Below are positions 302 through 47,305 of a stretch of 64,000 bases of DNA, one piece after another. The DNA is from Bacteroidaceae bacterium (GTDB lineage Bacteria > Bacillota > Clostridia > Oscillospirales > Acutalibacteraceae), in NCBI GenBank assembly GCA_963620305.1, contig CAVFAD010000002.1, positions 2,086-66,085 on the forward strand. Direction: 5' to 3'. Within the stretch, counting starts at the first letter, position 1; every line of letters starts with the position of its first letter. The notes below the pieces were generated by a model. That model ran no database searches. It was not told the DNA's origin and saw only the letters and a list, made by a program, of their open reading frames with translations. A program made the position numbers and the translations under genes.

Positions 302-608
302 CGAGCTTAACTCCGGTATGCTGTTTGAGTGCTCGGGGCATGCGGGCTCGGGCGAAAAGGGAAAGGATATCGTGTGCGCGGGCGTGTCGGCACTTGTTAT
401 CGCGCTCACGGAGAGGATAAACGACCTTGAATGCGAACACCTTATCCGTGTGGAGAGTTTTTATATTGCCGACGGCGAAATATCGCTTGAAATAAGCTGG
501 CAGGATGCTTTCGGGCGGGCGGCTGCGCTCGGTGTGTTCGAAACGGTTCGCGCGGGACTGACGCGCATAGCGGAGCTGTATCCCGAAAACGTGAGCTGCG
601 ATTTTTAG
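282..608 (+). CDS. prp: Prp-type (ribosomal-processing cysteine protease / DUF464-like) protease, phage-encoded
   Basis: GAGGTG Shine-Dalgarno sequence upstream. The motif FECSGHAGSGEKGKDIVCAGVSALV matches the His/Cys signature of the Prp/YsxB family. 108 aa is the typical size. Confidence 0.75.
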   Translation: MTSVSLNELNSGMLFECSGHAGSGEKGKDIVCAGVSALVIALTERINDLECEHLIRVESFYIADGEISLEISWQDAFGRAAALGVFETVRAGLTRIAELYPENVSCDF

Positions 609-30088: not shown

Positions 30089-31615
30089 TTATATTTTCCA
30101 CTTGTCGATTGTCCGGAAAATGTTGTCCTCGGTCACTTCGACCGTGCCGCCGACCGTGCGTGCGTAGCAAAACTGACCGTTGCGAAAACACAGCGGCACA
30201 AACGGAACGGATTCGTTGAACGAGCGAATGAACGCGTCAAGGCTTTCCGCACCGCTTTGGTATTCAAAATATTTCGTGCGTACCGTCGCCTCCGCCGCAA
30301 TGCCGTAAGAAACGCTGCCGTCCTCGGCAAAAAAGCAGCCGAGATCCATGTTTTTTGTCAGCTTGACTTCGCCGAGATACAGGTCGTACTCGCCGTTCGC
30401 AAGCGCGGTTTCGTAAGCGTCCTTTTCGAGTTTTTCAAGCTCGAGCGTTATGTTCACTTTTTTGAAGCTTTCCGCAAGCAGTGACGCGGTGTTGCGTGTG
30501 AAAGACCCCGTGTCGGTGTAGATAAGCTTCAGCGTGAGCGGATTTCCGTCCGTGCCGTAGCCGAGTGTTTTGAGCAGCGCGTTTGCCGCAACTGCGTCGC
30601 TGTCGGTCGCGGTGTATATCTGTTCCTTGGAATTTATGACGCTTGTCCACGCGGTGTTAAGCGGAATTTCGGTGATTCGTGCATGATTCATGAATGCATT
30701 TTCAACAATATGCTGTCTGTCGCACGCCATTGAGAGAGCCTTTCGCATGTCGGCGGTATTGAGCGGAAACTCTGCGGAGTTCACTCCGATAAAGACGAGG
30801 TCGTTCAGATACACTTCGCTCACGCTCGAATACGTGCGCTTTGCCGAGCCTTCGGACAGATCCGTAAAAAAGCAGTCGATTTCGCCTATGTCCAAAAGGT
30901 GCATGAGCGATTCGGTCACGGTGACGCTGTAAAGGCGAATTGTGCCTATTTTGGGAATTTCTCCGCCGTATCTCGGATTGTAAACGAGATTGGTGCGCAG
31001 CTCGCCCTTTTGGTACATGTACCGCCCCGTACCGACGGGGAGCGAGTCGGAGGTCTCTGCCGTGCCGTTTTTTGCAACGGGAAAGGTGAGCACCGACAAT
31101 ACGTTTACGTCTGCGGAAGTGAGCGTGAAGGTCAGGTCATATCTGCCAGCCGAAACGCAGTCTTCGATGTTTTTGAGGGACTGCGCGTACACCGTCGACG
31201 GCTTTGCCTTGGTGAAGGAATAAACAACATCCGCCGCCGTAAGCTCGGTGCCGTCCGAAAAATATATGCCGTCCGTCAGCGTTACCGTCACCGTTTTTCC
31301 CTGAACCGTGCCTGTTTTTGCGAGGTCGGCGACGGGCATAAAGCCCGCGTCCGTGACGTACAGCGAACGGAAAATGAGCGAGGTGAGCGACGAATTGAGA
31401 AGCGACCCCGTTACGAACGGATTAAGCGAATCGAGCGCGGTGTAGGGCACCGTCAGTACCCCTGCGGGAACGGTGCCTTCCGAGGACAGCTCGGCTGCGG
31501 CGGTAGTTTGTTCGGCGGACGGCGGCTGCGTTTTGCAGGACGAAAGAAACGCGGCGGCAAGCGCGATTACCGTCATAAACGATGTCAGTCTGACGAAAAA
31601 TTTACATGATTTCAT
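30089..31615 (-). CDS. ABC transporter substrate-binding lipoprotein, family 5 (peptide/nickel type), orphan
   Basis: Lipobox FLSSC. 508 aa with SBP_bac_5-like length and composition. No permease or ATPase genes nearby. Confidence 0.7.
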   Translation of the reverse strand: MKSCKFFVRLTSFMTVIALAAAFLSSCKTQPPSAEQTTAAAELSSEGTVPAGVLTVPYTALDSLNPFVTGSLLNSSLTSLIFRSLYVTDAGFMPVADLAKTGTVQGKTVTVTLTDGIYFSDGTELTAADVVYSFTKAKPSTVYAQSLKNIEDCVSAGRYDLTFTLTSADVNVLSVLTFPVAKNGTAETSDSLPVGTGRYMYQKGELRTNLVYNPRYGGEIPKIGTIRLYSVTVTESLMHLLDIGEIDCFFTDLSEGSAKRTYSSVSEVYLNDLVFIGVNSAEFPLNTADMRKALSMACDRQHIVENAFMNHARITEIPLNTAWTSVINSKEQIYTATDSDAVAANALLKTLGYGTDGNPLTLKLIYTDTGSFTRNTASLLAESFKKVNITLELEKLEKDAYETALANGEYDLYLGEVKLTKNMDLGCFFAEDGSVSYGIAAEATVRTKYFEYQSGAESLDAFIRSFNESVPFVPLCFRNGQFCYARTVGGTVEVTEDNIFRTIDKWKI

Positions 31616-32384
31616 AGCTTTCGATTGACACCGCCTTTCCGCTTTTGCTGTCGATTTCGATAACGGCGCAGCACATGGAGCACTGCCCCTCGGGAGTCAA
31701 AAACCTCACGGGCAGACCCGTGCGCAGCCTTTTTATGACGCACTGCGCTTCGACTCCGAGCACCGAGTTTACGGGACCGGTCATGCCGACATCGGTAATG
31801 TATGCCGTTTTGTTCGGGAGTATCTGCGCGTCGGCGGTTCTGACGTGCGTGTGCGTGCCGACAAGTGCACTCAGCCTGCCGTCCGCATAAAAGCCGAGAG
31901 CGCGTTTTTCGCCCGTTGCCTCCGCGTGAAAATCCGCAACGGTGCACGTTACTCCGTCCGCTTTCATCTGCGACAGCACCTCGTCAAGGCAGTCGAACGG
32001 GTCGGTGACGCGCATGTCCATAAAAGACATTCCGAGTAAATTTATCACACCGAGCCGCATTCCTCCGCGCGACAGCACGGTATACCCGACCCCCGGCGCG
32101 GAGCGGTGGACATTGGCGGGGCGAATCGCGGGCGAAAAGCTCTTGTCCAAAAAATCGGCAAACTCGGGTCGTCTGAACGTGTGATTGCCGCCCGTTACGA
32201 CATCCGCGCCCGCAGAAAGAATCATGCCGCACGACACGGGCGTTATGCCGTTGCCGACGGCGGAGTTTTCGCCGTTGACTATGCAAAAGTCGATATTGTG
32301 TTTTTTCTTCATCTGCGGCAGAGTACGCATCAGAAAATTACAGCCGATTTCCGATACGACATCGCCGACAAAAAGTACGCGCAC
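31602..32384 (-). CDS. ymdB: YmdB-type metallophosphoesterase (2',3'-cyclic-nucleotide phosphodiesterase, TIGR00282)
   Basis: VRVLFVGDVV...VNGENSAVGNGITP...GNHTF. GTG start after GGGGG. The upstream part of the ORF-track ORF is not protein-like. Confidence 0.8.
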   Translation of the reverse strand: MRVLFVGDVVSEIGCNFLMRTLPQMKKKHNIDFCIVNGENSAVGNGITPVSCGMILSAGADVVTGGNHTFRRPEFADFLDKSFSPAIRPANVHRSAPGVGYTVLSRGGMRLGVINLLGMSFMDMRVTDPFDCLDEVLSQMKADGVTCTVADFHAEATGEKRALGFYADGRLSALVGTHTHVRTADAQILPNKTAYITDVGMTGPVNSVLGVEAQCVIKRLRTGLPVRFLTPEGQCSMCCAVIEIDSKSGKAVSIESYEIM

Positions 32385-32719
32385 CGCGCTGCCCCCGTTC
32401 GTTAAGGTTTTGTTCGCCGTGCCGCGACGCAGGCGAACCGTGTCAACAGTAATTTTAGCACATCCGCGCCCGCCTTTCAAGCCGCAGAGGTAATAACGCA
32501 CGGAAAAATTCAGCCGAGCGGCGGTCGGCGGTGAGAGAGCGATTTGCGCGGGTTCGTTGTGTGCGGCGGTCGGTACGGAGATCGCGCTTTGTACGGGAGC
32601 GAAGCCGCAGGGAACGCGCTTTGTGTGTTTTGCGCGGGAAGAACGGCGCGGGGATAATTTTACGCGGCGGCGGGAGTAGTTGCGGGAAAACGGGGTATAA
32701 TCCGAACGGGTGAGAAGTT

Positions 32720-33526
32720 GTGAAAAACAGAAAGAATCAGGAAAAACATAAAAAAGAAACGGGAAAAAGCGGGCAAAAAGATATTATATGCCGCATTGTG
32801 CTGCTGCGAAGGCTTGCGCGACTGATGCATTTCGGTGCGGCGGTCATGCTCTTGCCGTGCTGTCTGCGTGTTGAATATTCTGCTGAGGAAATACTCGGCG
32901 GACTGCTGCTGCCGTCGTTTTTTATGAAGCATCCCGATGCGGCAGGGGCGGTGCTTTTCTTTTTCGTGCTTGTCGGGTTGTTTTTGACCGTGTGCGGATT
33001 TTCCGCGCTTTTTGCGGCGGAGTGCGAGAGCATGTACACGGCGGGTGCGGAGCTTTCGCCGCCGAAAAATATGATGACGCTGAGAAACGGCATTCGGTAC
33101 GGTGCGTTCTGCGCTGTGAGGACGGCGAGCAGAATGCGCGATGCCGCGTGCTTTTTTGCACCGACGGCGGCTGCGGCTGTGCTGCTTGCGGCAGTGCTTT
33201 TTTACGGTGTCGAACGTGCTGCCGCCGTTCTTGCAGCGGTGTCGTTTGCGCTGATATTCGCGCTCGGGGTCGGTTTTTTCGCGTGCGGCGGGGCAGGCAG
33301 AGAGAGGGGCACGGCGGTGCTGTACGTCAGTCTCCCCGCAACACCGCTCACGGCGGCAAGAGCGTCACGGGTTCGGCGGGGAGATATACCGCGCGCGCTG
33401 AAAAGGGAGGTGCTCTTTGCTTTTCTGCGGCTGCTGCTGCCCGTGCCTGCGGTTAGGCTTTTTGCCGATGCCGTAATGCGCAGAAAACGCGGAACGGACG
33501 CGATAGCTGCGCTGTTCGGGCAGTGA
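32720..33526 (+). CDS. Hypothetical polytopic membrane protein
   Basis: Several hydrophobic helices (e.g. AVLFFFVLVGLFLTVCGFSALFAA). The Ala/Arg-rich composition means a shadow ORF cannot be excluded. Confidence 0.4.
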   Translation: MKNRKNQEKHKKETGKSGQKDIICRIVLLRRLARLMHFGAAVMLLPCCLRVEYSAEEILGGLLLPSFFMKHPDAAGAVLFFFVLVGLFLTVCGFSALFAAECESMYTAGAELSPPKNMMTLRNGIRYGAFCAVRTASRMRDAACFFAPTAAAAVLLAAVLFYGVERAAAVLAAVSFALIFALGVGFFACGGAGRERGTAVLYVSLPATPLTAARASRVRRGDIPRALKREVLFAFLRLLLPVPAVRLFADAVMRRKRGTDAIAALFGQ

Positions 33527-34145: not shown

Positions 34146-37100
34146 ATGAAAAACAAAAACTCCGTTTTCAAAAAGGCATTGTCGGTTTTGTTGACCGCGC
34201 TGCTTGTTTTCGGCACGGTGTCGCTCGGCATCGTCTTCCCCGAAACAAAAATAACGGCGAAGGCACTTGAAAGCTTCGGCGATGTAGCATTGTATGTGCC
34301 TGAAGCTGTCTATTTGTATCCAAACGTTTCTTCTTGGACGGCAACAACATCGTCTAACTTTCAGTATTTCATTGAAAACAGTGTTGACACGGAGGATTTT
34401 TCAAACACCCCGACTCCCTCTGCCGAAACGAGCACGACGAGTACGATTTATTTTAATTATTCAAAAACAACCGGAACGCCTACGCTTTCATACAAGTGGA
34501 TAAAAGCCGACGGCTCAACGGAAATGAATGATTCTAAGGGAAAAATCAATTTCGGCGGGAGTGCTCATGCCTACGGCGTTGCAGTCAACATGTCAAAAAC
34601 AGGTGGTTATTACACGGCGGCACTTGACAGAACTTCGTCGGTTTCTCCCGATATTGCGGCAGCGGACACCGGTTGTTACATCGAGTGGACTGTTACCTTT
34701 GATGATTCGGTGGACGGAGAGACGAAGACAGCAGTAGCTTATACCTATGTATACAAACCGTATGTTCTTCCCGTCGGAGCGGCAGGTAAGGTAAGATGTA
34801 CGGATTGGGATGACCACGATAATTCACAGATAACATGGATAACCGGTGTGCATTGTGTTGATGCACTTCCGGAGTACAAATCGCATTACCCGAACTATAT
34901 CACAACATCTGAAGCTCCCGGAACAAACGGACTTGCGGTGTTCCTCTCTCGGGAGGATATTTCAGGTACCGGCTTTTTCGGCAGATCATCTTCCGGAAAT
35001 AATGAAGACAGAATGTACTTCCCGTTTTACAATTCCGATTCCTCAAAGTCATACGCTCATGTCAACGGTTACGGCAAAGCTGATCCCGATGTTTGGATGA
35101 AAAGCGGTTTATCTTCCAAAACATTTGATGTAGCGTCTTTCATATACCGAACATGGGATAAAGGCAATGATATAACCATGACCGTCAAAGAAGGCGGTGT
35201 CGGCGGAATATATATCGACACGAGTCGGTATGCAAATCTAAACCAAATACCGAACCTCGGTGTCGGTATGATGATGACGGATAACGAAGACACTAAAGCA
35301 TCTGATGACGGCGCATGGAAAATAGGTGACTACACAAATTATGCAAATGCGAAGTTCGACGGAGACAACAGTCAAAAAAACGGCGACTACATGCGCGGCA
35401 CATGGAAGGAATTTAATTATACGATTGCCGGAGAAGGAGACCCCGACAACCGAAACGGTTCTTACGATACATGCGTACTAAAGTATGCAGGAGCATGGTA
35501 TCGCGAGATTCTGTCGGGTTCTTCGGTAACCTACAAAATCAAAGCAAGCCAGATGAACAATCAGAAAAACGACTGGATAACCGTTTCTTGTATTGTTTCT
35601 CTTAATGCTACTCAGACGGACAAAAGCGATCTTCGTGACGCGGTTCATAAGGCAAGTGCGGCTTTTGCAAAGCTTGCAATGCGCAGCGGCTATAATTCAA
35701 TATACTACTATAATGACACAGCGTACCAAAATTTTGTAGCTAAGTATAAACAGGCATATATGGAGCTTACAAAGGTTGACGGCGGTGTTACAGAAGGACT
35801 TGCAGCAGATTTGCTTGCGTCTCTGGAAAAACTTAACATAAAGGTAACTCTTCACGGAAACGGCGCAACACTTACACCCAACTATAAAATAGTTACGGTC
35901 GGACTTAACGATTTGGTAAGTGTTAAGGTTTCCGAGTTCGGCACTCCGACGCGCAAGGGTTACACCTTTAAGGGTTGGACGCTCACCGAAAACAGCGGCG
36001 ACGCAACCGACGGGAAAACGGACGGAGAGCTTGAAGTAGGTCCCCGTCAGAAGGACGTTTACGCGACATGGGAGCTGAATGACTACACCGTGACGTTCAG
36101 GGCAATGCCCTACGGCAAATTCGGCGAATCAACAGAGGACGTTGTAATTCACTACAACGTTGAGAATACATTCACCGTGCCCGAAAATTACACACGCGAC
36201 TACTACATTTTCAACAATACATGGAACATAGTTTCAACCGACAGTGCCGATTGGAGCATGGGAGTAAGTCTTGCTCCCGGCTATACGTCCCCTGCGCGCA
36301 GTATAGGCAACCTTGTGCTTGAGCCGAACGTTACCCCGATTCAGTACACTGTAACATACAATTCCGACGGCGGCAGCAACATTGAGGACACGAGCGTCAT
36401 GGCGTACAACATTGAGAGTACGCACTCTCTCCCCGTGTCTACACGTCAGGGTTACAAGCTCGTCGGCTGGCAGGTTGTCACGACAGACGATGAAAAGTGG
36501 AGCAAGGACACAACATACGCCGCAGGCTACAAGTTCACCGGCATGCACGGCAACGTTTCTCTTAAAGCGGTATGGGAGACTATGACTTCAACCGTGACGC
36601 TGAACATCGGCGCGGATGAATCCATCTCCGGCAACACCGTGCTTACATACGCGTATTCGAGTTCTCTCGCGCTTAACACTCCCTCCAAAAAGGGTTACAC
36701 CTTTAAGGGTTGGCGCGTAAGTGCCAAGGGCGACGGCGAAAACACATGGAACATCGGTGACGAGTATCTTCTCGCTGCCGGTGAAACGGGCGTTACTCTG
36801 CCCGGCGGCAAGCTCGGTGACGTTACGCTCACGCCGATTTGGGAAATAAACACCTATACCGTCAATTTCAACTCCGACGGCGGCACGGCATATGACGCAA
36901 AAACTTTCACGGTGACGGACAGTATTACACTTCCCTCACCCGAAAAGAACGGCTACACTTTTGCGGGTTGGAGCGTTCCGATTCACGACACCGAGTACAA
37001 CTGGACGGATACCGTCTACAACGGCAATCAGACTCTCACGGGCATGTACGGTTCGGTCACGCTGAAAGCCAACTGGACAAAGACACCCTACACCGTGACG

Positions 37101-40100
37101 TTTGACGCGAACGGCGGCACGGTAACCGTCGCATCACTCCCCTACGACATCGAGAGCGGCACTCCGAACCTGCCCACTCCCTCCAAAACGGGATATGAAT
37201 TTGACCGCTGGGTCGTGGATTCAGCCGACGCGCAGTCCTCGTGGACGAAAGGCGCGGAGTATACCGATGCACTTCCTGCGGGCAATTACGGCAGTATGAC
37301 GCTTAAAGCTCAGTGGAAACCCGTTGAATACACCGTAAACTTCTCCGACGGCACTACAAAAACCTACACGATAGAAGAAACGTTTACGCTCCCCGAATCC
37401 GTAAAGGACGGCTATGAATTCGTCAAATGGACGCTTACTTCCACCAACGGCAACTGGGGCGAAACCGGCAAGGAATATGCCGCCGGCGAGGAGCTTTCCG
37501 GCATGTGGGGCGCGGCTGTGCTTCAAGCCGAGTACACCCCGTGCAGCTACACCGTGACATATCTTGACACGGACGGCAGCCAAATCGCGGCGCAGACATT
37601 CAAGACGGGCGACGAAATAACGCTCAGAGACTACTCGAAGGACGGTTATATCTTCCGCGGCTGGACGGTGCAAAGCTCCGCAGGCAACTGGGGCGGCGAG
37701 GGCAGCGTTATCACCGACAAAACCGTTGCGGCGAAGTACGGCGATGTTACGCTTGAGCCGAAGCTCGAAGCGATAGAATACACCGTGACATTCCTGCCCG
37801 ACGGCGGCGATGCAGTTCCCGCGATTACCTACACGGCGGAAGATACAATTACCATGCCCTCAACCGCGAAGTACGGCTATGACCTCGCGGGTTGGACGGT
37901 TGAAACTCCCGTCGGCAGCTGGACGGACGGCGAAATTTTCGCGGCGGCAGAGGAAGTCACGGGCAAATGGGGCAACGTTACGCTCAAGGCGAAATGGACA
38001 CCCAAGAAATACAACATTACATTTATAACAGGCATGGGCGAACAAGTTGTTCAGTCGGAATACGGTCAGGCGACGCCTACCCTGCCCGACGATTATTCGA
38101 AACCTGCCGACGCGCAGTATACCTATACGTTTGACCACTGGGAACCCGCTCTCACGAAAGTTACGGCAGATGCGACATACACCGCCGTCTACAAGGAAGA
38201 GCTTAATTCCTACACTGTGACGTGGCGCGTGCTCAAAACCGAGGGCGGCACGGACTGGGAAGAAACGACGGCAACGTGGAAGTACGGCGAAGAACCCAAA
38301 TTTGACGGCGTTCCGACGCAGAATGCAAGCAGTGCCGACCACAGAATGCGTTTTGTAAGGTGGAATCCCGATGTGACCGCCGTCACAGGAAACGCAACAT
38401 ACACGGCGGAATTTGAAAGTGTTGAAAATCCGCAGACGGTCGAATGGTACAACGGTTCAACGCTTCTTGCGTCCACGGAATGGGCAAAGGGCGAAACTCC
38501 GTCGTACAGCGGCGCAGTTCCCGCGAGAGCGGACGAGGGCGGCTATAAGTTCGTGTTCGTCGGCTGGGCAGCGACCGACGGCGGCGAAAAGCTCGACGCG
38601 ATACCGACGGTAGAAACCGTTTCAACCGAACCCGTAAAATACTATGCGGTGTTCGACAAACAGCCGCAGTCATACACTCTCACGCTTGACACCGACGGCG
38701 GAACGATTTCCGGCGGCAGCACGGTAAGCTACACCTACGGCGGCGAAAATACAAAAATAACACTCCCCTCTCCCGTTAAAGACGGCTATGTCTTCAAAGG
38801 CTGGCTCGTTGCATCGACGGACGGCGACGGCACATTGACGGTCGGCAGCGTTTACAACGCAGGTGAAAACACTGCGGATGTTTACGGCAGCGCATCGCTC
38901 AAGGCGCAGTGGGAGACAGTCACCTACACGCTTACATTCGACGGCGAGGGCGTGCCGGTCGAACCCATGAATTATACGATAGAATCGACGGATACTCTCC
39001 CGACAGCCGAAAAAGAAGGCTGCGAACATATCGGCTGGCTCGTTTTCGAAGCGGACGGCAGCTGGACGCTCGGAGCAAGCATTTCGACGGATTTTGTCCT
39101 CACGGGCACCTACGGCAACGCGACGCTCACACCTGTTTACACGGCGAAGACCTACACAATAAAGTGGGTAAGCGGCGAATATGTTCAGACTTCCGAAGTT
39201 CAGTTCGGTTCGGTGATATTCGCGTTTGAGCCTGTTTCGAAGCAGGGTTACACCGCCGAGTGGGATGCGGAAATTCCCGCGACGATGCCTGCAACTGACC
39301 TTACTTTCACGGCGGTTTACAAGCCGATTGAATACTACCTGCGTCTTGAGCTTAACGGCGGCACGGGCGCGGAGAGCTTCTACTACACCTTTGACGGCGA
39401 CGATGTCCTGCCGACACCCGCACGCGACGGCGCAACGTTCGACGGCTGGCGCGTCGTGTCCTCAAACGGCAACTGGACGGTCGGCACGGTTCTTGCGGGC
39501 GGTACGGCTCTTACGGGCAGGTACGGCAGCACGACTCTTTCGGCGCAGTGGCAGTTTGAAATCCACACGGTAACGTGGGTCGCGGGCGACGAAACACGCG
39601 TCACGCGCTGGTACCACGGCATGACTCCGTCCTTCGACGGCACGCCGTACAAGTCGACCGACGAAAACTATTCTTACGTGTTCACCGGTTGGGATAAGGA
39701 AATTCTCCCCGTCACGGCTGATGTTACATATACCGCACAATTTGAAAAAACGGAACGTGTTTATACGGTAAAATGGGTTGTCGACGGCGTTACGACGGAG
39801 CAGAAATACTCCTACGGCGACACTCCCGTTTACGGCGGCGAAACTCCGTCGCGTCCGTCAACGTCCGAGTATGACTTCACGTTTGACGGCTGGTCGCCCG
39901 AAGTCACTGAGGTAACAGCCGACGCGACGTATGTGGCGCAGTTCAGAGTTTTCGTAAAACTTCAGGGACTGTCGCTCAATAAGAGCGCGATGTTCCTCGA
40001 TATAGGTGCGGGCGAGAGCCTTACGGCGAATATTTATCCTGCGGCGGCATCCAGCAAAGATGTAATCTGGACTTCGTCCGACACGTCTAAAGCGACGGTG

Positions 40101-40835
40101 GACGCTTACGGTAAGGTTACGGCGGTAGATGCGGGCATGGCGATAATTTCCGCGTCGTCGGGCGACGGCAGCTTTAAGTCATACTGCGTCGTTACCGTTT
40201 CGCCGAAGCTGACGACCTACATTGAAATTACCGCAAAGGGCGTTTCGACAACGAATCAGAAGGGAACGTCAGTTCAGCTTTACGCCACGGTTAAACCCGA
40301 CGACGCAACGGACAGGACGTTTACGTGGTCGTCAGACAAGCCCGGCATCGCGTCGGTTGACGAATTCGGCATGGTTCGCTTTAACTCAAAGGGCACTGCG
40401 ACCATAAGCGTCGTTACGACAGACGGCTATGCGCGGGGCAGCATTGAAGTGACCGTAACGGAGGACGCGACCGAGGACGAAACGCAGAAGACATACACGG
40501 TTCGTTTCCTGAACCTCATGTGCACAATGTATCTTATTGACGACAACGGCAACTCGCACACTTTCGGCAGCAACGAAGTTGTGGTAGTGCCCGAGGGCGC
40601 AAGCGTCCGTATCCGTCCGTCGCGTTCGTGCTATGTCATTGCGAACGGCGAACAGCTCGCGCAGCAGGACGAGTACGTTATCGAAAACATTCAAAAGAAC
40701 TACATTATTTCCAATTCCAAGGTGGAGATAATAACTCCCGACGACAGTGACAGCGCACCGTCGTTCATGAAAAAGCTGCAGGAGTTCTTCAGAAAGATCG
40801 TCGAATTCTTCAGAAAGCTTTTCGGTGCAAAATAA
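34146..40835 (+). CDS. Giant secreted cell-surface protein: unknown ~570-aa head, ~18 Listeria-Bacteroides (Flg_new) repeats, 2 Big_2 domains, C-terminal amphipathic helix
   Basis: GGGAGAG RBS and signal peptide. Recurrent motif YTVTF..DGG...TLP.P.K.GY.F.GW...W..G...G..G.VTL.A.W. Big_2 segments at about 39.96-40.44 kb. No LPXTG, SLH or dockerin. Confidence 0.9.
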   Translation: MKNKNSVFKKALSVLLTALLVFGTVSLGIVFPETKITAKALESFGDVALYVPEAVYLYPNVSSWTATTSSNFQYFIENSVDTEDFSNTPTPSAETSTTSTIYFNYSKTTGTPTLSYKWIKADGSTEMNDSKGKINFGGSAHAYGVAVNMSKTGGYYTAALDRTSSVSPDIAAADTGCYIEWTVTFDDSVDGETKTAVAYTYVYKPYVLPVGAAGKVRCTDWDDHDNSQITWITGVHCVDALPEYKSHYPNYITTSEAPGTNGLAVFLSREDISGTGFFGRSSSGNNEDRMYFPFYNSDSSKSYAHVNGYGKADPDVWMKSGLSSKTFDVASFIYRTWDKGNDITMTVKEGGVGGIYIDTSRYANLNQIPNLGVGMMMTDNEDTKASDDGAWKIGDYTNYANAKFDGDNSQKNGDYMRGTWKEFNYTIAGEGDPDNRNGSYDTCVLKYAGAWYREILSGSSVTYKIKASQMNNQKNDWITVSCIVSLNATQTDKSDLRDAVHKASAAFAKLAMRSGYNSIYYYNDTAYQNFVAKYKQAYMELTKVDGGVTEGLAADLLASLEKLNIKVTLHGNGATLTPNYKIVTVGLNDLVSVKVSEFGTPTRKGYTFKGWTLTENSGDATDGKTDGELEVGPRQKDVYATWELNDYTVTFRAMPYGKFGESTEDVVIHYNVENTFTVPENYTRDYYIFNNTWNIVSTDSADWSMGVSLAPGYTSPARSIGNLVLEPNVTPIQYTVTYNSDGGSNIEDTSVMAYNIESTHSLPVSTRQGYKLVGWQVVTTDDEKWSKDTTYAAGYKFTGMHGNVSLKAVWETMTSTVTLNIGADESISGNTVLTYAYSSSLALNTPSKKGYTFKGWRVSAKGDGENTWNIGDEYLLAAGETGVTLPGGKLGDVTLTPIWEINTYTVNFNSDGGTAYDAKTFTVTDSITLPSPEKNGYTFAGWSVPIHDTEYNWTDTVYNGNQTLTGMYGSVTLKANWTKTPYTVTFDANGGTVTVASLPYDIESGTPNLPTPSKTGYEFDRWVVDSADAQSSWTKGAEYTDALPAGNYGSMTLKAQWKPVEYTVNFSDGTTKTYTIEETFTLPESVKDGYEFVKWTLTSTNGNWGETGKEYAAGEELSGMWGAAVLQAEYTPCSYTVTYLDTDGSQIAAQTFKTGDEITLRDYSKDGYIFRGWTVQSSAGNWGGEGSVITDKTVAAKYGDVTLEPKLEAIEYTVTFLPDGGDAVPAITYTAEDTITMPSTAKYGYDLAGWTVETPVGSWTDGEIFAAAEEVTGKWGNVTLKAKWTPKKYNITFITGMGEQVVQSEYGQATPTLPDDYSKPADAQYTYTFDHWEPALTKVTADATYTAVYKEELNSYTVTWRVLKTEGGTDWEETTATWKYGEEPKFDGVPTQNASSADHRMRFVRWNPDVTAVTGNATYTAEFESVENPQTVEWYNGSTLLASTEWAKGETPSYSGAVPARADEGGYKFVFVGWAATDGGEKLDAIPTVETVSTEPVKYYAVFDKQPQSYTLTLDTDGGTISGGSTVSYTYGGENTKITLPSPVKDGYVFKGWLVASTDGDGTLTVGSVYNAGENTADVYGSASLKAQWETVTYTLTFDGEGVPVEPMNYTIESTDTLPTAEKEGCEHIGWLVFEADGSWTLGASISTDFVLTGTYGNATLTPVYTAKTYTIKWVSGEYVQTSEVQFGSVIFAFEPVSKQGYTAEWDAEIPATMPATDLTFTAVYKPIEYYLRLELNGGTGAESFYYTFDGDDVLPTPARDGATFDGWRVVSSNGNWTVGTVLAGGTALTGRYGSTTLSAQWQFEIHTVTWVAGDETRVTRWYHGMTPSFDGTPYKSTDENYSYVFTGWDKEILPVTADVTYTAQFEKTERVYTVKWVVDGVTTEQKYSYGDTPVYGGETPSRPSTSEYDFTFDGWSPEVTEVTADATYVAQFRVFVKLQGLSLNKSAMFLDIGAGESLTANIYPAAASSKDVIWTSSDTSKATVDAYGKVTAVDAGMAIISASSGDGSFKSYCVVTVSPKLTTYIEITAKGVSTTNQKGTSVQLYATVKPDDATDRTFTWSSDKPGIASVDEFGMVRFNSKGTATISVVTTDGYARGSIEVTVTEDATEDETQKTYTVRFLNLMCTMYLIDDNGNSHTFGSNEVVVVPEGASVRIRPSRSCYVIANGEQLAQQDEYVIENIQKNYIISNSKVEIITPDDSDSAPSFMKKLQEFFRKIVEFFRKLFGAK
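35837..39948 (+). repeat. Array of diverged ~70-75-codon coding repeats inside the giant gene
   Basis: About 18 units by my count of the GY.F.GW core. They are diverged at the DNA level. Confidence 0.8.
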
Positions 40836-40896
40836 TCCGAACAAAAGCATCGGAGCCGTGCCGATTAAACGGTAACGACCGATAAAAAGCAAATTG

Positions 40897-40925
40897 CCCG
40901 CCGTATTATTTCGGCGGGTTTTTTG
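40897..40925 (+). terminator. Rho-independent terminator after the giant gene
   Basis: cccgccg / cggcggg stem, 9-nt loop, TTTTTT. Confidence 0.8.
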
Positions 40926-41028: not shown

Positions 41029-41057
41029 TTGACATTTTTCTGCGGTTTAAGTAAAAT
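41029..41057 (+). promoter_or_regulatory. Sigma-A-type promoter for the paralog pair
   Basis: TTGACA, 17-nt spacer, TAAAAT. Gives a 5' UTR of about 165 nt. Confidence 0.55.
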
Positions 41058-41226
41058 TAAGGGTAGTGTCATATCGAGTCTTTTTTCGGTTTTTTTCGGA
41101 AAGTAAGCTGACTGCGGTGCGCCTTACGACCGCTGCGGCGCGGGGAGAATACGTCTTTTGCCTGTCGCGGTGTGCCGTTTTTCGCGGTGCATGCGGCAGA
41201 AATATATACGAAAGGGATGTGCAGAA

Positions 41227-43464
41227 ATGAAACATTCTGTTAAAACAATCATTGCGCTGCTTCTCACCCTGGCTTGCATCGTGCAGCCGTGCAGCGCACT
41301 TGCGGCATCTTCAAAAAAGACATACGTCAAGGAATTTATGCTGAGCTACGGCAATACCGCCGACGAAGCCAAAAAGTGGCTCAAGGACAACGGCTACGAG
41401 GTGCTCGACTACGACCTCAATGAGGGCGCGGACGATACCTTCTCCAAAAAACGCGCCGTTTACCTCGGCTACAAAACGACGACCGACGCCGCAGACGCCG
41501 TTACCGACATGCGTCTTATGAACATGAAGGGCGGCTACAGCGTTCAGGATTATCAGATTATGCTCGACGAGCAAAAGGCGAATATCGAGCTGTTCATCGG
41601 GGATTTTGTTGTTGCGGTGAACGAGTACAGAGCGAATTACGCAAAGGGTCAGGAGCGCGCGAAGGCGGCTCACGACATGCTCAACTACCTGTATGACGAC
41701 GATACGCAGGCGCAGATGGGCGACCTGCTTCTCAATAAGATTAAGGAAGAATATACAGAGGAGGAATATAACGCGCTCGACGGGGACGTTAAGGCAAAGA
41801 CCGCCGACATGACGACGATTCTCATGCAGGGCAACGCCGACGCGGTGCTTGCGATAGAGCAGACGATAGCGACGGCTTCGGACAGCAGCGACACTCTCTG
41901 GACGGAGAGATATGCAGAGGCTTCGACTTATGACGAGATGCTCGACGAGCTTATGGAAGCCGAAAATATGACGGTAAACGAAGCCGAAAAGTTTCTTGCA
42001 GCCGAGTACGACGAGGACGCAAGGGCGATAGCGTCCAAAATCGACGGATACATTGAATATCTTGAAAACTATACAAAAGAGGACATAACGCTCCTGTCGT
42101 CGGCGGAGGAAATAAAAGCGTACGAAGCGGAGCACACCGACTTTTCGTACACGGACTGGTTTACGGCGGGAACGCAGTACGAGCTGCTTAAGGTGCTTAT
42201 GAACGACGACGTATCGCTGCTTGAGCTGATGACGGGCGAGGATTTTGACGTTCTGGGCGATGACCGCTGCATGCTTTATCCGCTTGTCGCGTCGCTTACA
42301 AAGGGTCAGAGAGCCTGTCTTGACTTTATGACGCTTTACGGAATCGTTGCACTCGGCATAAACGGCGACGAGGCAACGGCGGAGACAATGACCGATTTTA
42401 AGCTGAAGCCGACCGACGAAAAGGGCGTTTCCGTTTACGACGGTGTCGACCGTACTCTTTTCGGCGGCGAAGTCGCGCTTACGAATGACGCAATAAGGCT
42501 CCGCGCTTCGACCGGCAAAGAGGCTGTACGAAGCAGGGAAAGCTACATTTCCGCGACCTCGTACGTTCTTTACGGCGTCTTCTGCCTTTCGGCAATATGT
42601 GCCGTTGCCGCGTGGAAGCACAGCGCGTCGCTTGCCGCCTTCGCTGCGGAAGTAAAGAAAAACGTAGCACAGATTGAGTCGGAGGCAGCCGAAGCATATG
42701 CAATGTACGAGAGGCTGGGTACCGAGCAGGAGTGGGCGCCGTACAAAACAAAGTACGACGACCTGATGTCGAAATCCGAAACTGCGCGGACGGGTCTCGG
42801 CAAGACAAACACAATGACGAAATATTTCCGCTATGCGGGCATCGCGCTGACATGCATTTCGATAATAATCATGGGTATTTCGCTCTGGAACACCTACAAT
42901 GACCTTAAGGAATATTATAAGTCCGATTTCACACCCATTCCGATGCACATGGTGGATGAGGGTGTCGATGAAAATGACGAGAAGGTCTATACGTACTATA
43001 CGGCGGTCGCCTGCAACCGTAAGGACGCGGGTATGGTGACATCCGAAACCGAAATTCTCGAGGATTACGGCGACCTCAACGGCGATGTCGGCAGACAGTG
43101 GGTCGCGCTCTATACCACAAAGGACAAGGCTGCGGGTTATCCCGTTCAGACAAATATGCTCGTGCGCTACGAGGACTCAAAGCTCCCCGACGAGGATTCG
43201 ACCGCGCTTTCGATGTTCGGCGAAAAATCCGCGCAGAACCTCACTAACGAAACGGCGGGTTATACGTACAACGACGGAAAGAGCGGAATTTACATGTTCT
43301 TCAGCGTCGATACGGCAGCCTTCGCCGGCAGCGTATTCTCCGGCAGCAGGTACGTCCTTATGGGCGGCGCGGCAGCCGTTTTGCTTGCAGCCGCCTTCGC
43401 TGCGGGCATGTATACGGAGAAAAAGGGCAAAAAAAAGACAAAAAATAATGTTCAAGAGGTCTAA
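41227..43464 (+). CDS. Three-TM surface protein, unknown family, paralog A
   Basis: Signal peptide (ALAASS), ectodomain of about 440 aa, TM, helical loop of about 65 aa, TM, second ectodomain of about 165 aa, TM, Lys-rich tail. Start chosen at MKHSVKT with AAAGGGA upstream. Confidence 0.85.
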   Translation: MKHSVKTIIALLLTLACIVQPCSALAASSKKTYVKEFMLSYGNTADEAKKWLKDNGYEVLDYDLNEGADDTFSKKRAVYLGYKTTTDAADAVTDMRLMNMKGGYSVQDYQIMLDEQKANIELFIGDFVVAVNEYRANYAKGQERAKAAHDMLNYLYDDDTQAQMGDLLLNKIKEEYTEEEYNALDGDVKAKTADMTTILMQGNADAVLAIEQTIATASDSSDTLWTERYAEASTYDEMLDELMEAENMTVNEAEKFLAAEYDEDARAIASKIDGYIEYLENYTKEDITLLSSAEEIKAYEAEHTDFSYTDWFTAGTQYELLKVLMNDDVSLLELMTGEDFDVLGDDRCMLYPLVASLTKGQRACLDFMTLYGIVALGINGDEATAETMTDFKLKPTDEKGVSVYDGVDRTLFGGEVALTNDAIRLRASTGKEAVRSRESYISATSYVLYGVFCLSAICAVAAWKHSASLAAFAAEVKKNVAQIESEAAEAYAMYERLGTEQEWAPYKTKYDDLMSKSETARTGLGKTNTMTKYFRYAGIALTCISIIIMGISLWNTYNDLKEYYKSDFTPIPMHMVDEGVDENDEKVYTYYTAVACNRKDAGMVTSETEILEDYGDLNGDVGRQWVALYTTKDKAAGYPVQTNMLVRYEDSKLPDEDSTALSMFGEKSAQNLTNETAGYTYNDGKSGIYMFFSVDTAAFAGSVFSGSRYVLMGGAAAVLLAAAFAAGMYTEKKGKKKTKNNVQEV

Positions 43465-43469
43465 AAAGT

Positions 43470-45707
43470 ATGAACAGTAAAATATTTAAAGCGATTTTGA
43501 GTGTTTTTCTTTCCGTTACCGTCTGTCTTCTCACCTGCACGAGCGCGTTTGCGGCATCGTCAAATAAGACATACGTCAAGGAAACGGTGCTCAGCTACGG
43601 CAAAACGGAAGACGAAGCCAAAAAGTGGCTCAAGGACAACGGCTACGAGGTGCTCGACCACAACCTCAACGAGGGTGCGGACGACATTTTCTCGAAAAAG
43701 CGCGCCGTTTATCTCGGCTACAAAACGACGAACAACGCGGACGAAGCCATTACCGACATGCGTCTTATGAACATGAACGGCGGCTACAGCGTTCAGGATT
43801 ATCAGATTTTGCTCGAAGAGCAGAAGGCGAGCATCGGGGCGTTTATTGACAGCTTTATTGTTGCCGTGAACGAGTACAGAGCGAACTACGAAAAGGGTCA
43901 GGAGCGTGCAAGGGCGGCTCACGACATGCTCAACATGTTCCTTGAGGACGACACTCAGCAGAAAATGGGCGACCTGCTTCTCAATAAGATTAAAGAAGAA
44001 TATACCGAGGACGAATACAACGCGCTGTCCGATGAAGTCAAGGGCAAAACAGCCGACATGACGACGGTTCTCATGCAGGGCAACGCAGACATCGTGCTCT
44101 CGATTGAGCAGATTATCGCAATAGCGACGGACAGCGGCGAAGACCTTTGGATTGAAAGATACAGCACGGCGGCGACATATGACGATATGCTCGACGAGCT
44201 TATGGAAAGCGAAAATCTGACGGTTAACGAAGCCGAAAAGAAGCTTGCCGCCGAATACGACGAGCAGGCAAGGTCGTTGGCGTCAAAGCTTGAAGCGTAT
44301 AAGGACTATCTCGACGCATACACGAACGAGGAGCTGACCCTTACAAGCACGAAGGAGGAGCTGGACGCGTATGCGGAGGCTCATTCCGATTTCGATTCGG
44401 CGATATGGTTTGCGGCAGGCGTGCAGTATGAGCTGCTCGACGTGCTTGAAAACGACGGCATTACACTGCGCGAGCTTATATTCGGAGACGAATTTGACGT
44501 TGCGAACACGGACAGATATTTGCTCTATCCTCTTATTGCGTCCCTTTCAAAGGGTCAGAGAGCATGTCTCGATTTTCTGTCGATGTATCAGATAGTTTCT
44601 CTCGGCATTAACGGCGACGAAACCTACAAAGAGGTCGCTCAGAGCCTGAAGCTCGAAACGGTCGGAGACGGGGCGACTTCGGTTTATACGGGCATTGACC
44701 GCACGGTATTCGGAGACGAGGTCGCTCTTACGGGGGATGCCTACAAGCTTCAAAATTCCACAGGCAAGAGTGTTATGTCGCGCTGGGAATCCATCACCGT
44801 TTTCACGAAGGCGTTGTATATTGCCTTCGGTGTTTCTCTTGCGGCTTCTGCGCTTTCGGCTGCATCGACGCATCTTATGGATTTTCTTGCGCAAAAGCTC
44901 GACTCCGCAAGTGAAAATTATATAAAGATGGCGGATTCGTGCCTCAACCAAGCCCGAAGCGATTACGGCATCCTGGACGAAGCCGAAATGATGAGCAACA
45001 AATATATGGCAAAGAGCAGGGCATCAGTGCGCGGAATCGGCACTGCGCAGACAATGCAGGACGTGTTCTACTATGCGGGCATAGTCTTTGCGTGCGTGGG
45101 CATCGTTCTGGCGGTTGCCTCGATTTGGCGCACCGTTGTCGATATTAAAAGGTATTACGATTCCGAATTTACGCCCATCCCGATGCACATGGTGGACGAG
45201 AGTGTCAACGAAAACGACGAAAAGGTTTATACTTATTACACTGCGGTCACCTGCAACCGCAAGGACGCCGGCATGGTGACGGAGGAAACCGAAATTCTCA
45301 AGGACTTCGGCGACCTAAACGGCGACGTCGGCAAGCAGTGGGTCGCGCTCTACACCACAAAGGACAAGGCTGCGGGCAACCCGATAACAACCGATTTTAA
45401 GGTGCAGTACGAGAACAGCAGCATTCCGGGCGAAAGGACGCCTCTCTCGATTTTCTGCGAAAACACGGCGCAGAACCTGACCGACGAAAAATCCGGTTAC
45501 ACATACTCGGACGACAGAAACGGCATTTATCTGTTCTTCGGCACCGATGTCAATGCCTACGCGGGCAGCGTTTTCTCCGGAAACAGATATGCTCTTGTGG
45601 GCGGTGCGGCGATAGTACTGCTTGCGCTGTCTTTCTTCGCGGGAACAAAAGCAGGCAAAAAGGGCAGCGGCAGAAAAAATAAAGAGGGCGGCGCCGTCAC
45701 GGCGTAA
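43470..45707 (+). CDS. Three-TM surface protein, unknown family, paralog B
   Basis: Lies 5 nt after paralog A, with an AGAGGT RBS. Same architecture as A, with long identical stretches (e.g. DEAKKWLKDNGYEVLD, KKRAVYLGYKTT, FTPIPMHMVDE, NDEKVYTYYTAV). Confidence 0.85.
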   Translation: MNSKIFKAILSVFLSVTVCLLTCTSAFAASSNKTYVKETVLSYGKTEDEAKKWLKDNGYEVLDHNLNEGADDIFSKKRAVYLGYKTTNNADEAITDMRLMNMNGGYSVQDYQILLEEQKASIGAFIDSFIVAVNEYRANYEKGQERARAAHDMLNMFLEDDTQQKMGDLLLNKIKEEYTEDEYNALSDEVKGKTADMTTVLMQGNADIVLSIEQIIAIATDSGEDLWIERYSTAATYDDMLDELMESENLTVNEAEKKLAAEYDEQARSLASKLEAYKDYLDAYTNEELTLTSTKEELDAYAEAHSDFDSAIWFAAGVQYELLDVLENDGITLRELIFGDEFDVANTDRYLLYPLIASLSKGQRACLDFLSMYQIVSLGINGDETYKEVAQSLKLETVGDGATSVYTGIDRTVFGDEVALTGDAYKLQNSTGKSVMSRWESITVFTKALYIAFGVSLAASALSAASTHLMDFLAQKLDSASENYIKMADSCLNQARSDYGILDEAEMMSNKYMAKSRASVRGIGTAQTMQDVFYYAGIVFACVGIVLAVASIWRTVVDIKRYYDSEFTPIPMHMVDESVNENDEKVYTYYTAVTCNRKDAGMVTEETEILKDFGDLNGDVGKQWVALYTTKDKAAGNPITTDFKVQYENSSIPGERTPLSIFCENTAQNLTDEKSGYTYSDDRNGIYLFFGTDVNAYAGSVFSGNRYALVGGAAIVLLALSFFAGTKAGKKGSGRKNKEGGAVTA

Positions 45708-45760: not shown

Positions 45761-45830
45761 GGCACGGGTTTGCTTCCCGTCCGACAGAAATAAACACAAA
45801 CCGACGGGCGGCACGGGTTTGCTTCCCGTC
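45761..45830. repeat. Perfect 21-bp direct repeat ggcacgggtttgcttcccgtc (x2, 49 bp apart), tRNA T-arm-like
   Basis: Copies at 45761-45781 and 45810-45830. Related to 56266-56306 and, more weakly, to 28084-28100. Confidence 0.85.
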
Positions 45831-46018: not shown

Positions 46019-46047
46019 TTGACAAACGAAAAAATCGGGTCTATAAT
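46019..46047 (+). promoter_or_regulatory. Consensus sigma-A promoter upstream of cysK
   Basis: TTGACA, 17-nt spacer, TATAAT (perfect hexamers). Confidence 0.7.
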
Positions 46048-46372
46048 ACAACCAACCTACGAGGTAAGTAGATAAAACAAAAAGGAGACGGCGACGATGA
46101 GTTTGTATTTGCCCGCAGTGCGAATGTGTATACGGCGGCATCGGCCGCACGCCGTATAGGCGCACGAAGAAAAAAACGGCAGGGACGGAGCTTTGCCGAC
46201 GGAAATGAATACGGCGGAGACGGCGGGTTGCCGAAAAAGAAAATACCGCCGAACAGCACAAGCGGCTTGCTGAAAAAGCCGTTGTCGGGCGGTGAAAACG
46301 CGGGGCAGAAGCAAGGTACCGCAGAGAACGCAAAAAAAGCCTTCACAAAAATATAAAAAAGGAGTAATTACA
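46048..46372 (+). promoter_or_regulatory. Long (~320 nt) structured 5' leader of cysK; class unresolved
   Basis: Several stems (e.g. tatacggc/gccgtata, cggctt/aagccg) and a GGTACCGC element near the 3' end. Canonical T-box or SAM-box cores were not convincingly found. Confidence 0.4.
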
Positions 46373-47305
46373 ATGTCAAAAATATATACATCAGCCGATC
46401 AGCTTATAGGAAAAACACCTTTGCTTGAACTCACTCACATAGAAAAAAAACTCGGTCTTAAGGCGCATTTACTTGCAAAGCTCGAATATTTCAATCCCGC
46501 AGGTTCCGTAAAGGACAGGATAGCTAAGGCGATGATAGACGATGCCGAAGCAAAAGGACTTCTCAAAGAGGGTTCGGTCATAATCGAGCCGACTTCCGGC
46601 AACACGGGTATCGGACTTTCGAGCGTTGCTGCGGCAAGGGGTTACCGCATTATCATCGTTATGCCCGAAACCATGTCGGTTGAACGCCGTCAGCTTATGA
46701 AGGCATACGGCGCGGAGCTTGTGCTCACCGAGGGCGCAAAGGGCATGAAAGGCGCGATTGCAAAGGCTGAGGAGCTTGCAAAAGAAATTCCCGACTCGTT
46801 TATTCCGGGGCAGTTTGTCAATGAAGCCAACCCGAAGGCGCATTATTCCTCAACCGGTCCCGAAATTTTTGAGGATACCGACGGAAAACTAGATTATTTT
46901 GTCGCGGGTGTCGGCACCGGCGGTACGGTCACGGGTACGGGCAAATTCCTTAAAGAGAAGATTGCAGGCGTGAAGGTGGCTGCTGTCGAACCGGAAACCT
47001 CTCCGGTGCTCTCGCAGGGCAAAGCCGGTTCGCACAAGATTCAGGGAATCGGCGCGGGTTTCGTTCCCGATGTTCTCGACACAAAGGTGTATGACGAGGT
47101 CATTCCCGTTTCGAATGAAAACGCTTTCGAATACGGCAAGCTTATCGGGAAGACAGAGGGCATTCTTGTCGGAATTTCCTCCGGTGCGGCTCTTTTCGCC
47201 GCAATAGAAATCGCAAAGCGTCCCGAAAACGAGGGCAAAAATATAGTTGTTTTGTTCCCCGACACGGGCGACAGATATCTTTCGACTCCGCTGTTTGCGG
47301 ACTGA
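46373..47305 (+). CDS. cysK: Cysteine synthase A (O-acetylserine sulfhydrylase)
   Basis: AAGGAG RBS. Motifs [19 protein letters not shown] (PLP lysine) and TSGNTGIGL. Confidence 0.9.

Follow-up and report, generated by a model that had tools for sequence, protein, structure and literature searches.

The locus analyzed here raises the question of what two adjacent genes of an uncultured clostridium, called A and B below, encode, and whether their products act together with the giant surface protein G, whose gene directly precedes them. The genes lie at positions 41227 to 45707 of a 64,000-nucleotide (nt) stretch of DNA, referred to as the window, which comes from the assembly GCA_963620305.1 (contig CAVFAD010000002.1, positions 2,086 to 66,085 of the forward strand). 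The assembly is named Bacteroidaceae bacterium and is assigned by GTDB to the Acutalibacteraceae within the Clostridia. A near-identical YidC protein of the same species bears the label Oscillospiraceae bacterium, so that the window probably stems from an uncultured gut member of the Oscillospiraceae. An earlier reading made from the sequence alone, the original prediction, had described A and B as tandem paralogous surface proteins of an unrecognised family and as parts of a candidate novel system with G. We propose, with a probability of roughly 55%, that A and B are co-transcribed paralogues and multi-pass membrane-anchored surface proteins of uncultured Clostridia, which are likely to serve as structural or interaction subunits of a surface assembly of the cell envelope. 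This role is regarded as the most likely one because a beta module of the two proteins is shared by other proteins encoded in the same gene clusters, and because arrays of the family genes lie beside genes for PrsW, PMP-like and secreted partners.

In the list of open reading frames (ORFs), both genes stand on the forward strand and encode 745 amino acids (aa) each (Table 1). The longest reading of gene A begins at the TTG at position 41158; the ATG at 41227 is preceded by an AAAGGGA ribosome-binding site and agrees with the N-termini of homologues. The TAA stop codon of A occupies 43462-43464 and the ATG of B starts at 43470, which leaves a spacer of 5 nt. Coordinates, spacer and promoter agree with the tandem pair behind a single TTGACA/TAAAAT promoter that the original prediction had described, and A and B are very probably co-transcribed. 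Absent from that prediction is an intrinsic terminator located between the stop codon of G (40835) and the A/B promoter, with an 8-bp stem that contains 7 G-C pairs and is followed by a T-run. A scan of the whole window against Rfam matched no family, and a tRNA scan of the window found none.

The two products share 60% identity over 735 aa. Kyte-Doolittle hydropathy peaks are found at the N-terminus, corresponding to the signal peptide, and at residues ~443-461, 536-554 and 710-728, with Lys-rich tails after the last peak. The signal peptide ends between ALA and AS in A and between AFA and AS in B. A reading of these peptides as lipoprotein signals was rejected, since a proper lipobox is missing and Ala-x-Ala sites are present instead. 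The AlphaFold2 model of A, computed from 63 diverse homologues, reaches a mean predicted local distance difference test (pLDDT) score of 86.9 and a predicted template modelling (pTM) score of 0.72. It consists of a small beta/alpha piece at residues 33-99, an all-helical ectodomain at residues 106-430, two very long antiparallel helices (443-496 and 500-564), which hold the transmembrane (TM) helices TM1 and TM2 with a polar hairpin between them, a beta-rich piece at 574-694, and TM3 at 708-734. This layout agrees with the hydropathy profile, so that both lines of evidence bear out the predicted three-TM topology with a signal peptide, two ectodomains, a loop and a Lys-rich tail. The sizes of ectodomain 1 (~415 aa), the cytoplasmic loop (~74 aa) and ectodomain 2 (~155 aa) are also near the earlier estimates. 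The conservation of the ectodomains and the divergence of the TM1-loop-TM2 region between the two copies were likewise described correctly: the identity amounts to 68% in ectodomain 1 and 70% in ectodomain 2 versus 32% in TM1, 24% in the loop and 43% in TM2. In the helical ectodomain, the conserved columns form the polar motifs EYRxNY, AHDxLN, DDDT, LGDLLL, LMQxN, LYPLVAxLSxGQRA and SVYxGVDR.

The pair is not a chance finding, since more than 600 homologues were obtained at E <= 1e-3 in one search and the family amounts to 894 clusters at 50% identity (E <= 1e-3) in an exhaustive search. None of the homologues of the first search carries a functional name. All of the homologues come from metagenome-assembled genomes, and many metagenome assemblies from gut and rumen contain the family. 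No domain was matched by A or B in Pfam and NCBIfam, and PADLOC and PHROGs gave nothing at E <= 0.1 save one insignificant PHROG match (E 0.073). When 63 family members were scanned singly against Pfam, no family recurred. The Foldseek search with the model of A, a check that the original prediction had proposed, revealed no significant neighbour (best E 0.55 in the PDB and 0.18 in BFVD), and its weak matches resemble generic long-helix or coiled-coil proteins. A full-text literature search for the motifs of the family found no papers. The A/B family is real, large, unnamed and structurally unmatched, as the term unrecognised had implied. With about 900 clusters at 50% identity, in no curated domain library and with no PDB neighbour, it represents a sizeable part of the "dark" surface proteome of uncultured Clostridia.

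The architecture of the extracellular part becomes clearer from proteins that share the beta pieces with A and B. The original prediction had pointed to a DLN-G...YL-Y motif in both ectodomains. The motif is indeed present, though with three occurrences in A (residues 63-85, 616-633 and 671-695) and not two; a shifted hhalign comparison between these units gives only E 0.005-0.008. A ~430-aa protein encoded in the gene cluster described below starts with a contiguous module of 157 aa, composed of three similar units, each of which ends with LN-x-G...YL-x-Y. When this module was compared by hhalign with the joined N-terminal and C-terminal beta pieces (N-piece and C-piece) of the A family, the two profiles matched end to end with a probability of 98% and an E value of 1.6e-13. 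Against native A, the module matches residues 32-149 (probability 96%, E 3.8e-9) and residues 564-696 (E 7.8e-5), with the N-piece paired to unit 1 and the C-piece to units 2-3. A natural protein of 306 aa, P0269 (L031 3529-4449), lacks the helical domain and the TM hairpin. It consists of a signal peptide, the N-piece directly joined to the C-piece, a TM helix and a KKKK tail, and it shares 41% identity with residues 1-107 and 36% with residues 495-708 of A. Its gene is located downstream of those for a ~1500-aa-type protein and a ~430-aa secreted-type protein. The model of P0269 (pLDDT 84, pTM 0.76) displays about three groups of three to four strands and one helix. The topology predicted from hydropathy places both the N-piece and the C-piece of A on one side of the membrane, the outer one. 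Because of the hhalign matches, the existence of P0269 without the insertion and the same-side topology of both pieces, we infer that the N- and C-terminal beta pieces probably form one module, and that the helical ectodomain, TM1, the cytoplasmic hairpin and TM2 of A and B would together represent one large insertion into it. If this is correct, a beta domain interrupted by two membrane passes is an unusual case of domain insertion. A PDB sequence search with a profile of the N+C chimera returned nothing but engineered mini-G proteins, which had matched the GGSGG linker of the chimera itself; this result was discarded as an artefact.

The original prediction had reported an impression of similarity to membrane-associating MABP domains, and the two beta pieces could on this account be true MABP domains, which bind lipids or the membrane directly and possibly take part in a toxin-like or contact-dependent membrane attack. 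Like the MABP domains of human MVB12B (3TOW) and Photorhabdus plu1415 (2QP2), the module appears to contain three copies of a short unit, in which a turn of acidic or Asn-Leu type stands between a hydrophobic strand and a YL-aromatic one; this unit resembles, as read by eye from sequences and alignment, the MVB12B pattern GY-V...DL...K..YL-F-R...V-DM-L-I. For the A/B module, an all-beta structure of about three sheets at the membrane surface is predicted, and the strand groups in the P0269 model are compatible with a beta-prism. De Souza and Aravind (2010, PMC2881412) moreover reported MABP domains in cell-wall-type proteins of Clostridium that carry beta-helix repeats, and a Chlam_PMP beta-helix protein is encoded in the clusters related to A and B, so that both occur in clostridial surface proteins in the company of beta-helix proteins. 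The MABP domain corresponds to PROSITE PS51498 and to the MVB12 region of Pfam PF10240, with 3TOW and 2QP2 as PDB entries; for the profile comparison, homologues of MVB12B were collected in a separate search. While PF10240 finds MVB12B at E 2e-62, it finds nothing at E <= 1 in A, B, P0269 or the ~430-aa cluster protein. The module profiles reach at most 3% probability against 3TOW in hhalign and 5.6% against the 17-sequence MVB12B profile (pairwise E 0.007), a profile which is shallow and contains vertebrates only. In a Foldseek search of the P0269 model against 350,542 PDB chains the best E value was 1.2, with no MABP domain among the 50 matches listed. In addition to this absence of a significant sequence, profile or fold match, the first unit of A and B differs from MABP domains by an extra helix, and the module is broken by ~450 residues with two TM helices, which is not described for MABP domains. 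No MACPF or other toxin domain was found, and no immunity-like gene lies nearby. True MABP domains with a direct role in membrane binding or attack are therefore unlikely. The motif-level resemblance stands, all formal tests (Pfam, hhalign, Foldseek) were negative, and the module may be a remote homologue of MABP domains for which membership cannot be claimed.

The genomic context in other species bears on the possible role of the family. At these loci the genes form arrays of 1-5 tandem copies, with one to at least four of them full-length, single copies being found at L017 and L018. Most of the arrays lie in a conserved envelope gene cluster of 7-9 genes, the products of which are all unnamed. 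Besides the 745-aa genes, one to at least four of them full-length, the cluster encodes a 222-aa membrane protein, a stand-alone intramembrane protease of the PrsW family (Pfam E 1.6e-15), a two-module protein of ~430-480 aa that has a signal peptide and, at its C-terminus, a TM helix, a beta-helix protein of the Chlam_PMP-like type with ~450-490 aa (Pfam E 7.8e-11), a ~1500-1700-aa protein, the N-terminal half of which is a 25%-identical paralogue of A/B, and a ~410-460-aa secreted protein with an internal duplication. The cluster is kept in relatives only 34-39% identical to A (L028 and L029). Of 25 other-species loci, 19 carry one or more of the partner genes beside the family; the six that carry none include five contigs no longer than 5.3 kb. 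L009, with a lone pair, and L017, where the single copy stands beside type IV pilus-like genes, clearly depart from the pattern. The homologues of the ~1500-aa paralogue are all annotated as "hypothetical protein" and come from metagenome-assembled genomes of Clostridia or Firmicutes. A literature search for clusters with PrsW and PMP found nothing specific; the PrsW-linked envelope gene cluster has not been described before and is defined here by its gene content. In a distance tree, A and B each group with their own ortholog in L001, and independent duplications are seen in other lineages. Since L001 holds distinct orthologs of A and B, the A/B duplication is old and predates the split from L001. 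In the distant relative L026, a STAS protein and a SpoIIE/HATPase_c_2 protein, both partner-switching regulators, are encoded directly after the cluster genes (L026 14041-16528); ahead of STAS lie three family genes, the gene for a 721-aa protein that is PMP-like in its C-terminal half, and the gene for the ~1566-aa paralogue.

On this basis the following route to an envelope surface assembly can be proposed. The proteins A and B would be exported by the Sec system, and their signal peptides would be cleaved. They would be fixed in the membrane by the helical hairpin, formed by TM1, a short variable cytoplasmic coiled coil and TM2, and by TM3 with its Lys-rich tail. The extracellular beta pieces may meet as a composite three-unit module just outside the membrane, while the all-helical domain of ~330 residues with its conserved polar motifs probably faces outward and provides the surface for binding a partner or ligand. 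The conserved ectodomain, composed of the beta module and the inserted helical domain, would thus be the functional part, with the TM hairpin and the tail as anchors. The beta module recurs in the co-clustered ~430-aa and ~1500-aa surface proteins and, in its unsplit form, in the 306-aa protein. The assembly is possibly subject to processing by PrsW. PrsW proteases are known from anti-sigma factor signalling, with RsiW of B. subtilis as the example, and PrsW-dependent processing was proposed by Zhang et al. 2012 (PMC3482391). A similarity to those systems is that most relatives encode a stand-alone protease of the PrsW family in a cluster with the family genes, and that the family members, like known PrsW substrates, are embedded in the membrane and have large ectodomains. 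Unlike those systems, no sigma/anti-sigma pair and no toxin domain is present, PrsW is not fused to the family proteins and the window contains no PrsW gene; cleavage of the A/B family is a purely conjectural step.

A more far-reaching version of the proposal is put forward only tentatively. According to it, the 745-aa proteins would be core subunits of an undescribed multi-protein envelope apparatus of uncultured gut and rumen Clostridia, which is built on a new membrane-proximal beta module, uniquely split in A and B and possibly a very remote relative of the eukaryotic MABP domain. The parts of this apparatus would be the tandem 745-aa proteins, the ~1500-aa paralogue, the PMP-like beta-helix protein, two more secreted proteins and the dedicated PrsW-type protease. 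If the PrsW-linked cluster does encode a real assembly, this would be a Gram-positive envelope structure of a new kind and would add a new class of candidates for PrsW substrates. The immediate value of the analysis lies in annotation and in the generation of hypotheses, and the conserved PrsW-linked cluster with the split-module architecture, located mostly outside the window, is the more interesting lead.

Several observations weigh against the proposed role and the architecture on which it is built. A tblastn search of the window with six partner proteins found none of them, as only the A/B-homologous parts of two queries matched, namely in A and B; the surface-assembly role may not apply in this genome, or the partners may be encoded elsewhere in it. 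Hidden Markov models of the module likewise match A and B only within the window. P0269 comes from one 4.5-kb metagenomic contig as its sole source. For the presumed contact between the N- and C-pieces in A, the enrichment in covariation, measured as mutual information with average product correction, is weak (10 of the top 120 pairs versus 4.2 expected, about 2-fold, at ~165 effective sequences). Finally, TM1 is only marginally hydrophobic in some members: at the threshold used, 22 of 63 proteins show three hydrophobic peaks and not four, and the missing peak is often, though not always, TM1.

From the diverged TM1-loop-TM2 region the original prediction had derived a heteromer or a sensor pair. 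In its full form, this would make A and B a heteromeric transmembrane sensor or transducer, in which the ectodomains sense and the diverged region gives an output specific to each paralogue. The difference between ectodomains of 68-70% identity and a loop of 24% fits such a division of labour, as do the partner-switching genes behind the cluster in L026 and the part played by PrsW proteases in anti-sigma signalling, with RsiW of B. subtilis (PMC3482391). The cytoplasmic part, however, amounts only to the helical hairpin of ~74 aa and a short Lys-rich tail with no recognisable output domain, and neither HisKA/HATPase, zf-HC2 nor a similar domain was matched in A or B in Pfam and NCBIfam. Across the whole family, conservation is lowest in the TM1-loop-TM2 region, with a majority-residue frequency of 0.18 versus 0.43-0.57 in the ectodomains, and the variation in length is greatest there (74 to 207 aa), which points to low constraint rather than to specialisation. 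The way in which A and B diverge is therefore typical of the family at large and does not mark a specialised pair. Single-copy loci exist (L017 and L018), the copy number rises to at least four, and no regulator gene is adjacent to A and B in the window. The sensor pair is not supported by these comparisons and is regarded as quite improbable.

The pattern of conservation also bears on another explanation, according to which the family consists of variable surface antigens or receptors, whose tandem copies diversify under phage or host pressure and have no role in assembly. Tandem duplications recur in several lineages, and the pair in the window stands beside a strain-variable adhesin and a synteny break associated with IS110. 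The ectodomains are the conserved part of the proteins, with A and B ~99% identical between strains and the ectodomains of the paralogues 68-70% identical. Conserved polar motifs are distributed throughout the extracellular part. In a set of 63 diverse members, many polar positions do not vary at all, which fits purifying selection on a defined function. Diversifying antigens are thus given a low probability. Tripartite alpha-helical toxins of the ClyA family (Hbl/Nhe/AhlABC) resemble A and B as tandem paralogues with signal peptides, a largely helical structure and a hydrophobic helical hairpin. They differ from A and B, which have a third TM helix, a Lys-rich cytoplasmic tail and a beta module, and the hydrophobic segments of which are set apart by a polar hairpin of ~74 residues. 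No Pfam match to these toxins was obtained for A or B, and the best Foldseek match to AhlC had an E value of 2.1 and a TM-score of 0.08. The subunits of an envelope surface assembly remain the preferred description of A and B, and the features of the locus are collected in Table 1.

Table 1. Features of the A/B locus and its surroundings (window positions unless a contig is named; residues are those of protein A)
Feature	Position	Strand	Basis or remark
Gene A, 745 aa	41227..43464	+	ORF, hydropathy, AlphaFold2 model, homologues
Layout of A, first half: signal peptide 1-27, N-terminal beta/alpha piece 28-104, helical ectodomain 105-440, TM1 441-462			
Layout of A, second half: cytoplasmic helical hairpin 463-535, TM2 536-556, C-terminal beta piece 557-708, TM3 709-730, Lys-rich tail			
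N-piece of A (residues 28-104), probable beta-module unit 1, DLNEG...VYLGYKTT...AVTDMRLMNM	41308..41538	+	pLDDT 87-98; most conserved region of the family
Helical ectodomain of A (residues 105-440)	41539..42546	+	Secondary structure, pLDDT mostly >90; read as a probable insertion into the beta module
TM1, cytoplasmic helical hairpin and TM2 of A (residues 441-556)	42547..42894	+	Poorly conserved; A/B 24-43% identical
C-piece of A (residues 557-708), probable beta-module units 2-3, GDLNGDVGRQWVALYTTKD; AQNLT...GIYMFF	42895..43350	+	Beta strands, pLDDT 87-97
Gene B, 745 aa, paralogue of A with the same architecture	43470..45707	+	ORF, 60% identity to A, hydropathy
Ribosome-binding site of B (AAGAGG)	43454..43459	+	Within the 3' end of A; sequence read
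Putative sigma-70-type promoter of the A-B operon, TTGACA-17-TAAAAT	41029..41057	+	11/12 consensus positions; function inferred
5' leader of A, ~170 nt, AAAGGGA just before the ATG	41058..41226	+	Sequence read
Intrinsic terminator closing the G transcript, between G and the A/B unit	40896..40919	+	GCCCGCCG-loop-CGGCGGGT then TTTTTG
Giant surface protein G, 2229 aa, 10 Flg_new repeats and 2 Big_2 domains	34146..40835	+	Pfam; context, not shown to be part of the A/B unit
PrsW-linked gene cluster, examples in other species	L002 5913-20554; L006 5094-19829; L028 467-12719; L029 554-12332		

The protein G belongs to the Flg_new/Big_2 type of surface adhesins by its Listeria-Bacteroides repeats and Big_2 domains (Flg_new E 1.9e-55, Big_2 E 2.9e-26 in Pfam). 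A and B resemble this type in being exported Firmicutes surface proteins and are adjacent to G here; they share neither these nor any other domain with G, are anchored by TM helices of their own and belong to a different, unnamed family. The original prediction had suggested a functional trio of A, B and the anchor-less G, in which the pair would serve the anchoring, export or signalling of G. The three genes are adjacent on the same strand in the window and on four contigs of conspecific strains, L022-L025, which retain the order SBP - YmdB - 268-aa ORF - G - A - B. G has neither an LPXTG motif nor a C-terminal TM helix and ends with an amphipathic helix, and in other species the family is usually found near another very large surface protein. 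That protein is the ~1500-aa paralogue of A/B, which is unrelated to G. G is found beside A and B only in the conspecific strains; no G-like protein lies beside the family in the other-species loci (L001-L021 and L026-L031), apart from two cases: L015 has at its edge a partial Flg_new ORF of weak similarity, and L001 encodes a Flg_new protein in the opposite orientation. The strong terminator and the separate near-consensus promoter place G and A/B in separate transcription units. Moreover, the conspecific copies are 98.9% (A) and 98.8% (B) identical to those of the window and only 82% identical in G, which shows no sign of co-evolution. A system of A and B with G is thus very unlikely. The homologues elsewhere are not linked to Flg_new giants, as the sceptical side of the original prediction had allowed for, yet they do not occur mainly as single copies and are usually multi-copy. 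In the window, A and B appear as a satellite copy of the family beside an unrelated, fast-evolving Flg_new adhesin.

The variation of G is concentrated at one end. The N-terminal ~560 aa of G cannot be aligned at the DNA level between the window and the conspecific contig L022: the stretch 34327-35832 has no DNA-level match there, and the remainder of G is 97% identical. No Pfam domain was found in the variable N-terminal region (window 34146-35832), which may be the specificity tip of the adhesin. Upstream of G, a hydrophobic Ala/Leu-rich ORF of 268 aa (32720-33526, forward strand) is 91% identical and kept in position in the conspecific strains; it matched nothing in Pfam, PADLOC and PHROGs.

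Downstream of B, the synteny with the conspecific strains stops after 254 nt. In those strains, an IS110-family transposase gene and then the RNase Y gene rny follow (L022 15043-18288), where the window contains cysK and nadA. An exact 21-nt direct repeat, GGCACGGGTTTGCTTCCCGTC, is located just past B at 45761-45781 and 45810-45830 and occurs nowhere else in the window; by chance none would be expected. The gene ymdB (31602-32501, reverse strand) stands just upstream of the G-A-B block, and the conspecific rny (L022 16729-18288) just downstream of it on the opposite strand. In Bacillus subtilis, rny and ymdB are adjacent and co-oriented. If that arrangement is ancestral, the whole block of the 268-aa ORF, G, A and B may occupy a rearranged or inserted site. 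Farther downstream, a perfect sigma-70 promoter (TTGACA-17-TATAAT, 12/12 positions) at 46019-46047 is followed by a leader of ~325 nt up to the likely start of cysK at 46373. The region 46019-46372, in which no Rfam family was matched at threshold, is possibly an undescribed leader or riboswitch-like element of cysK.

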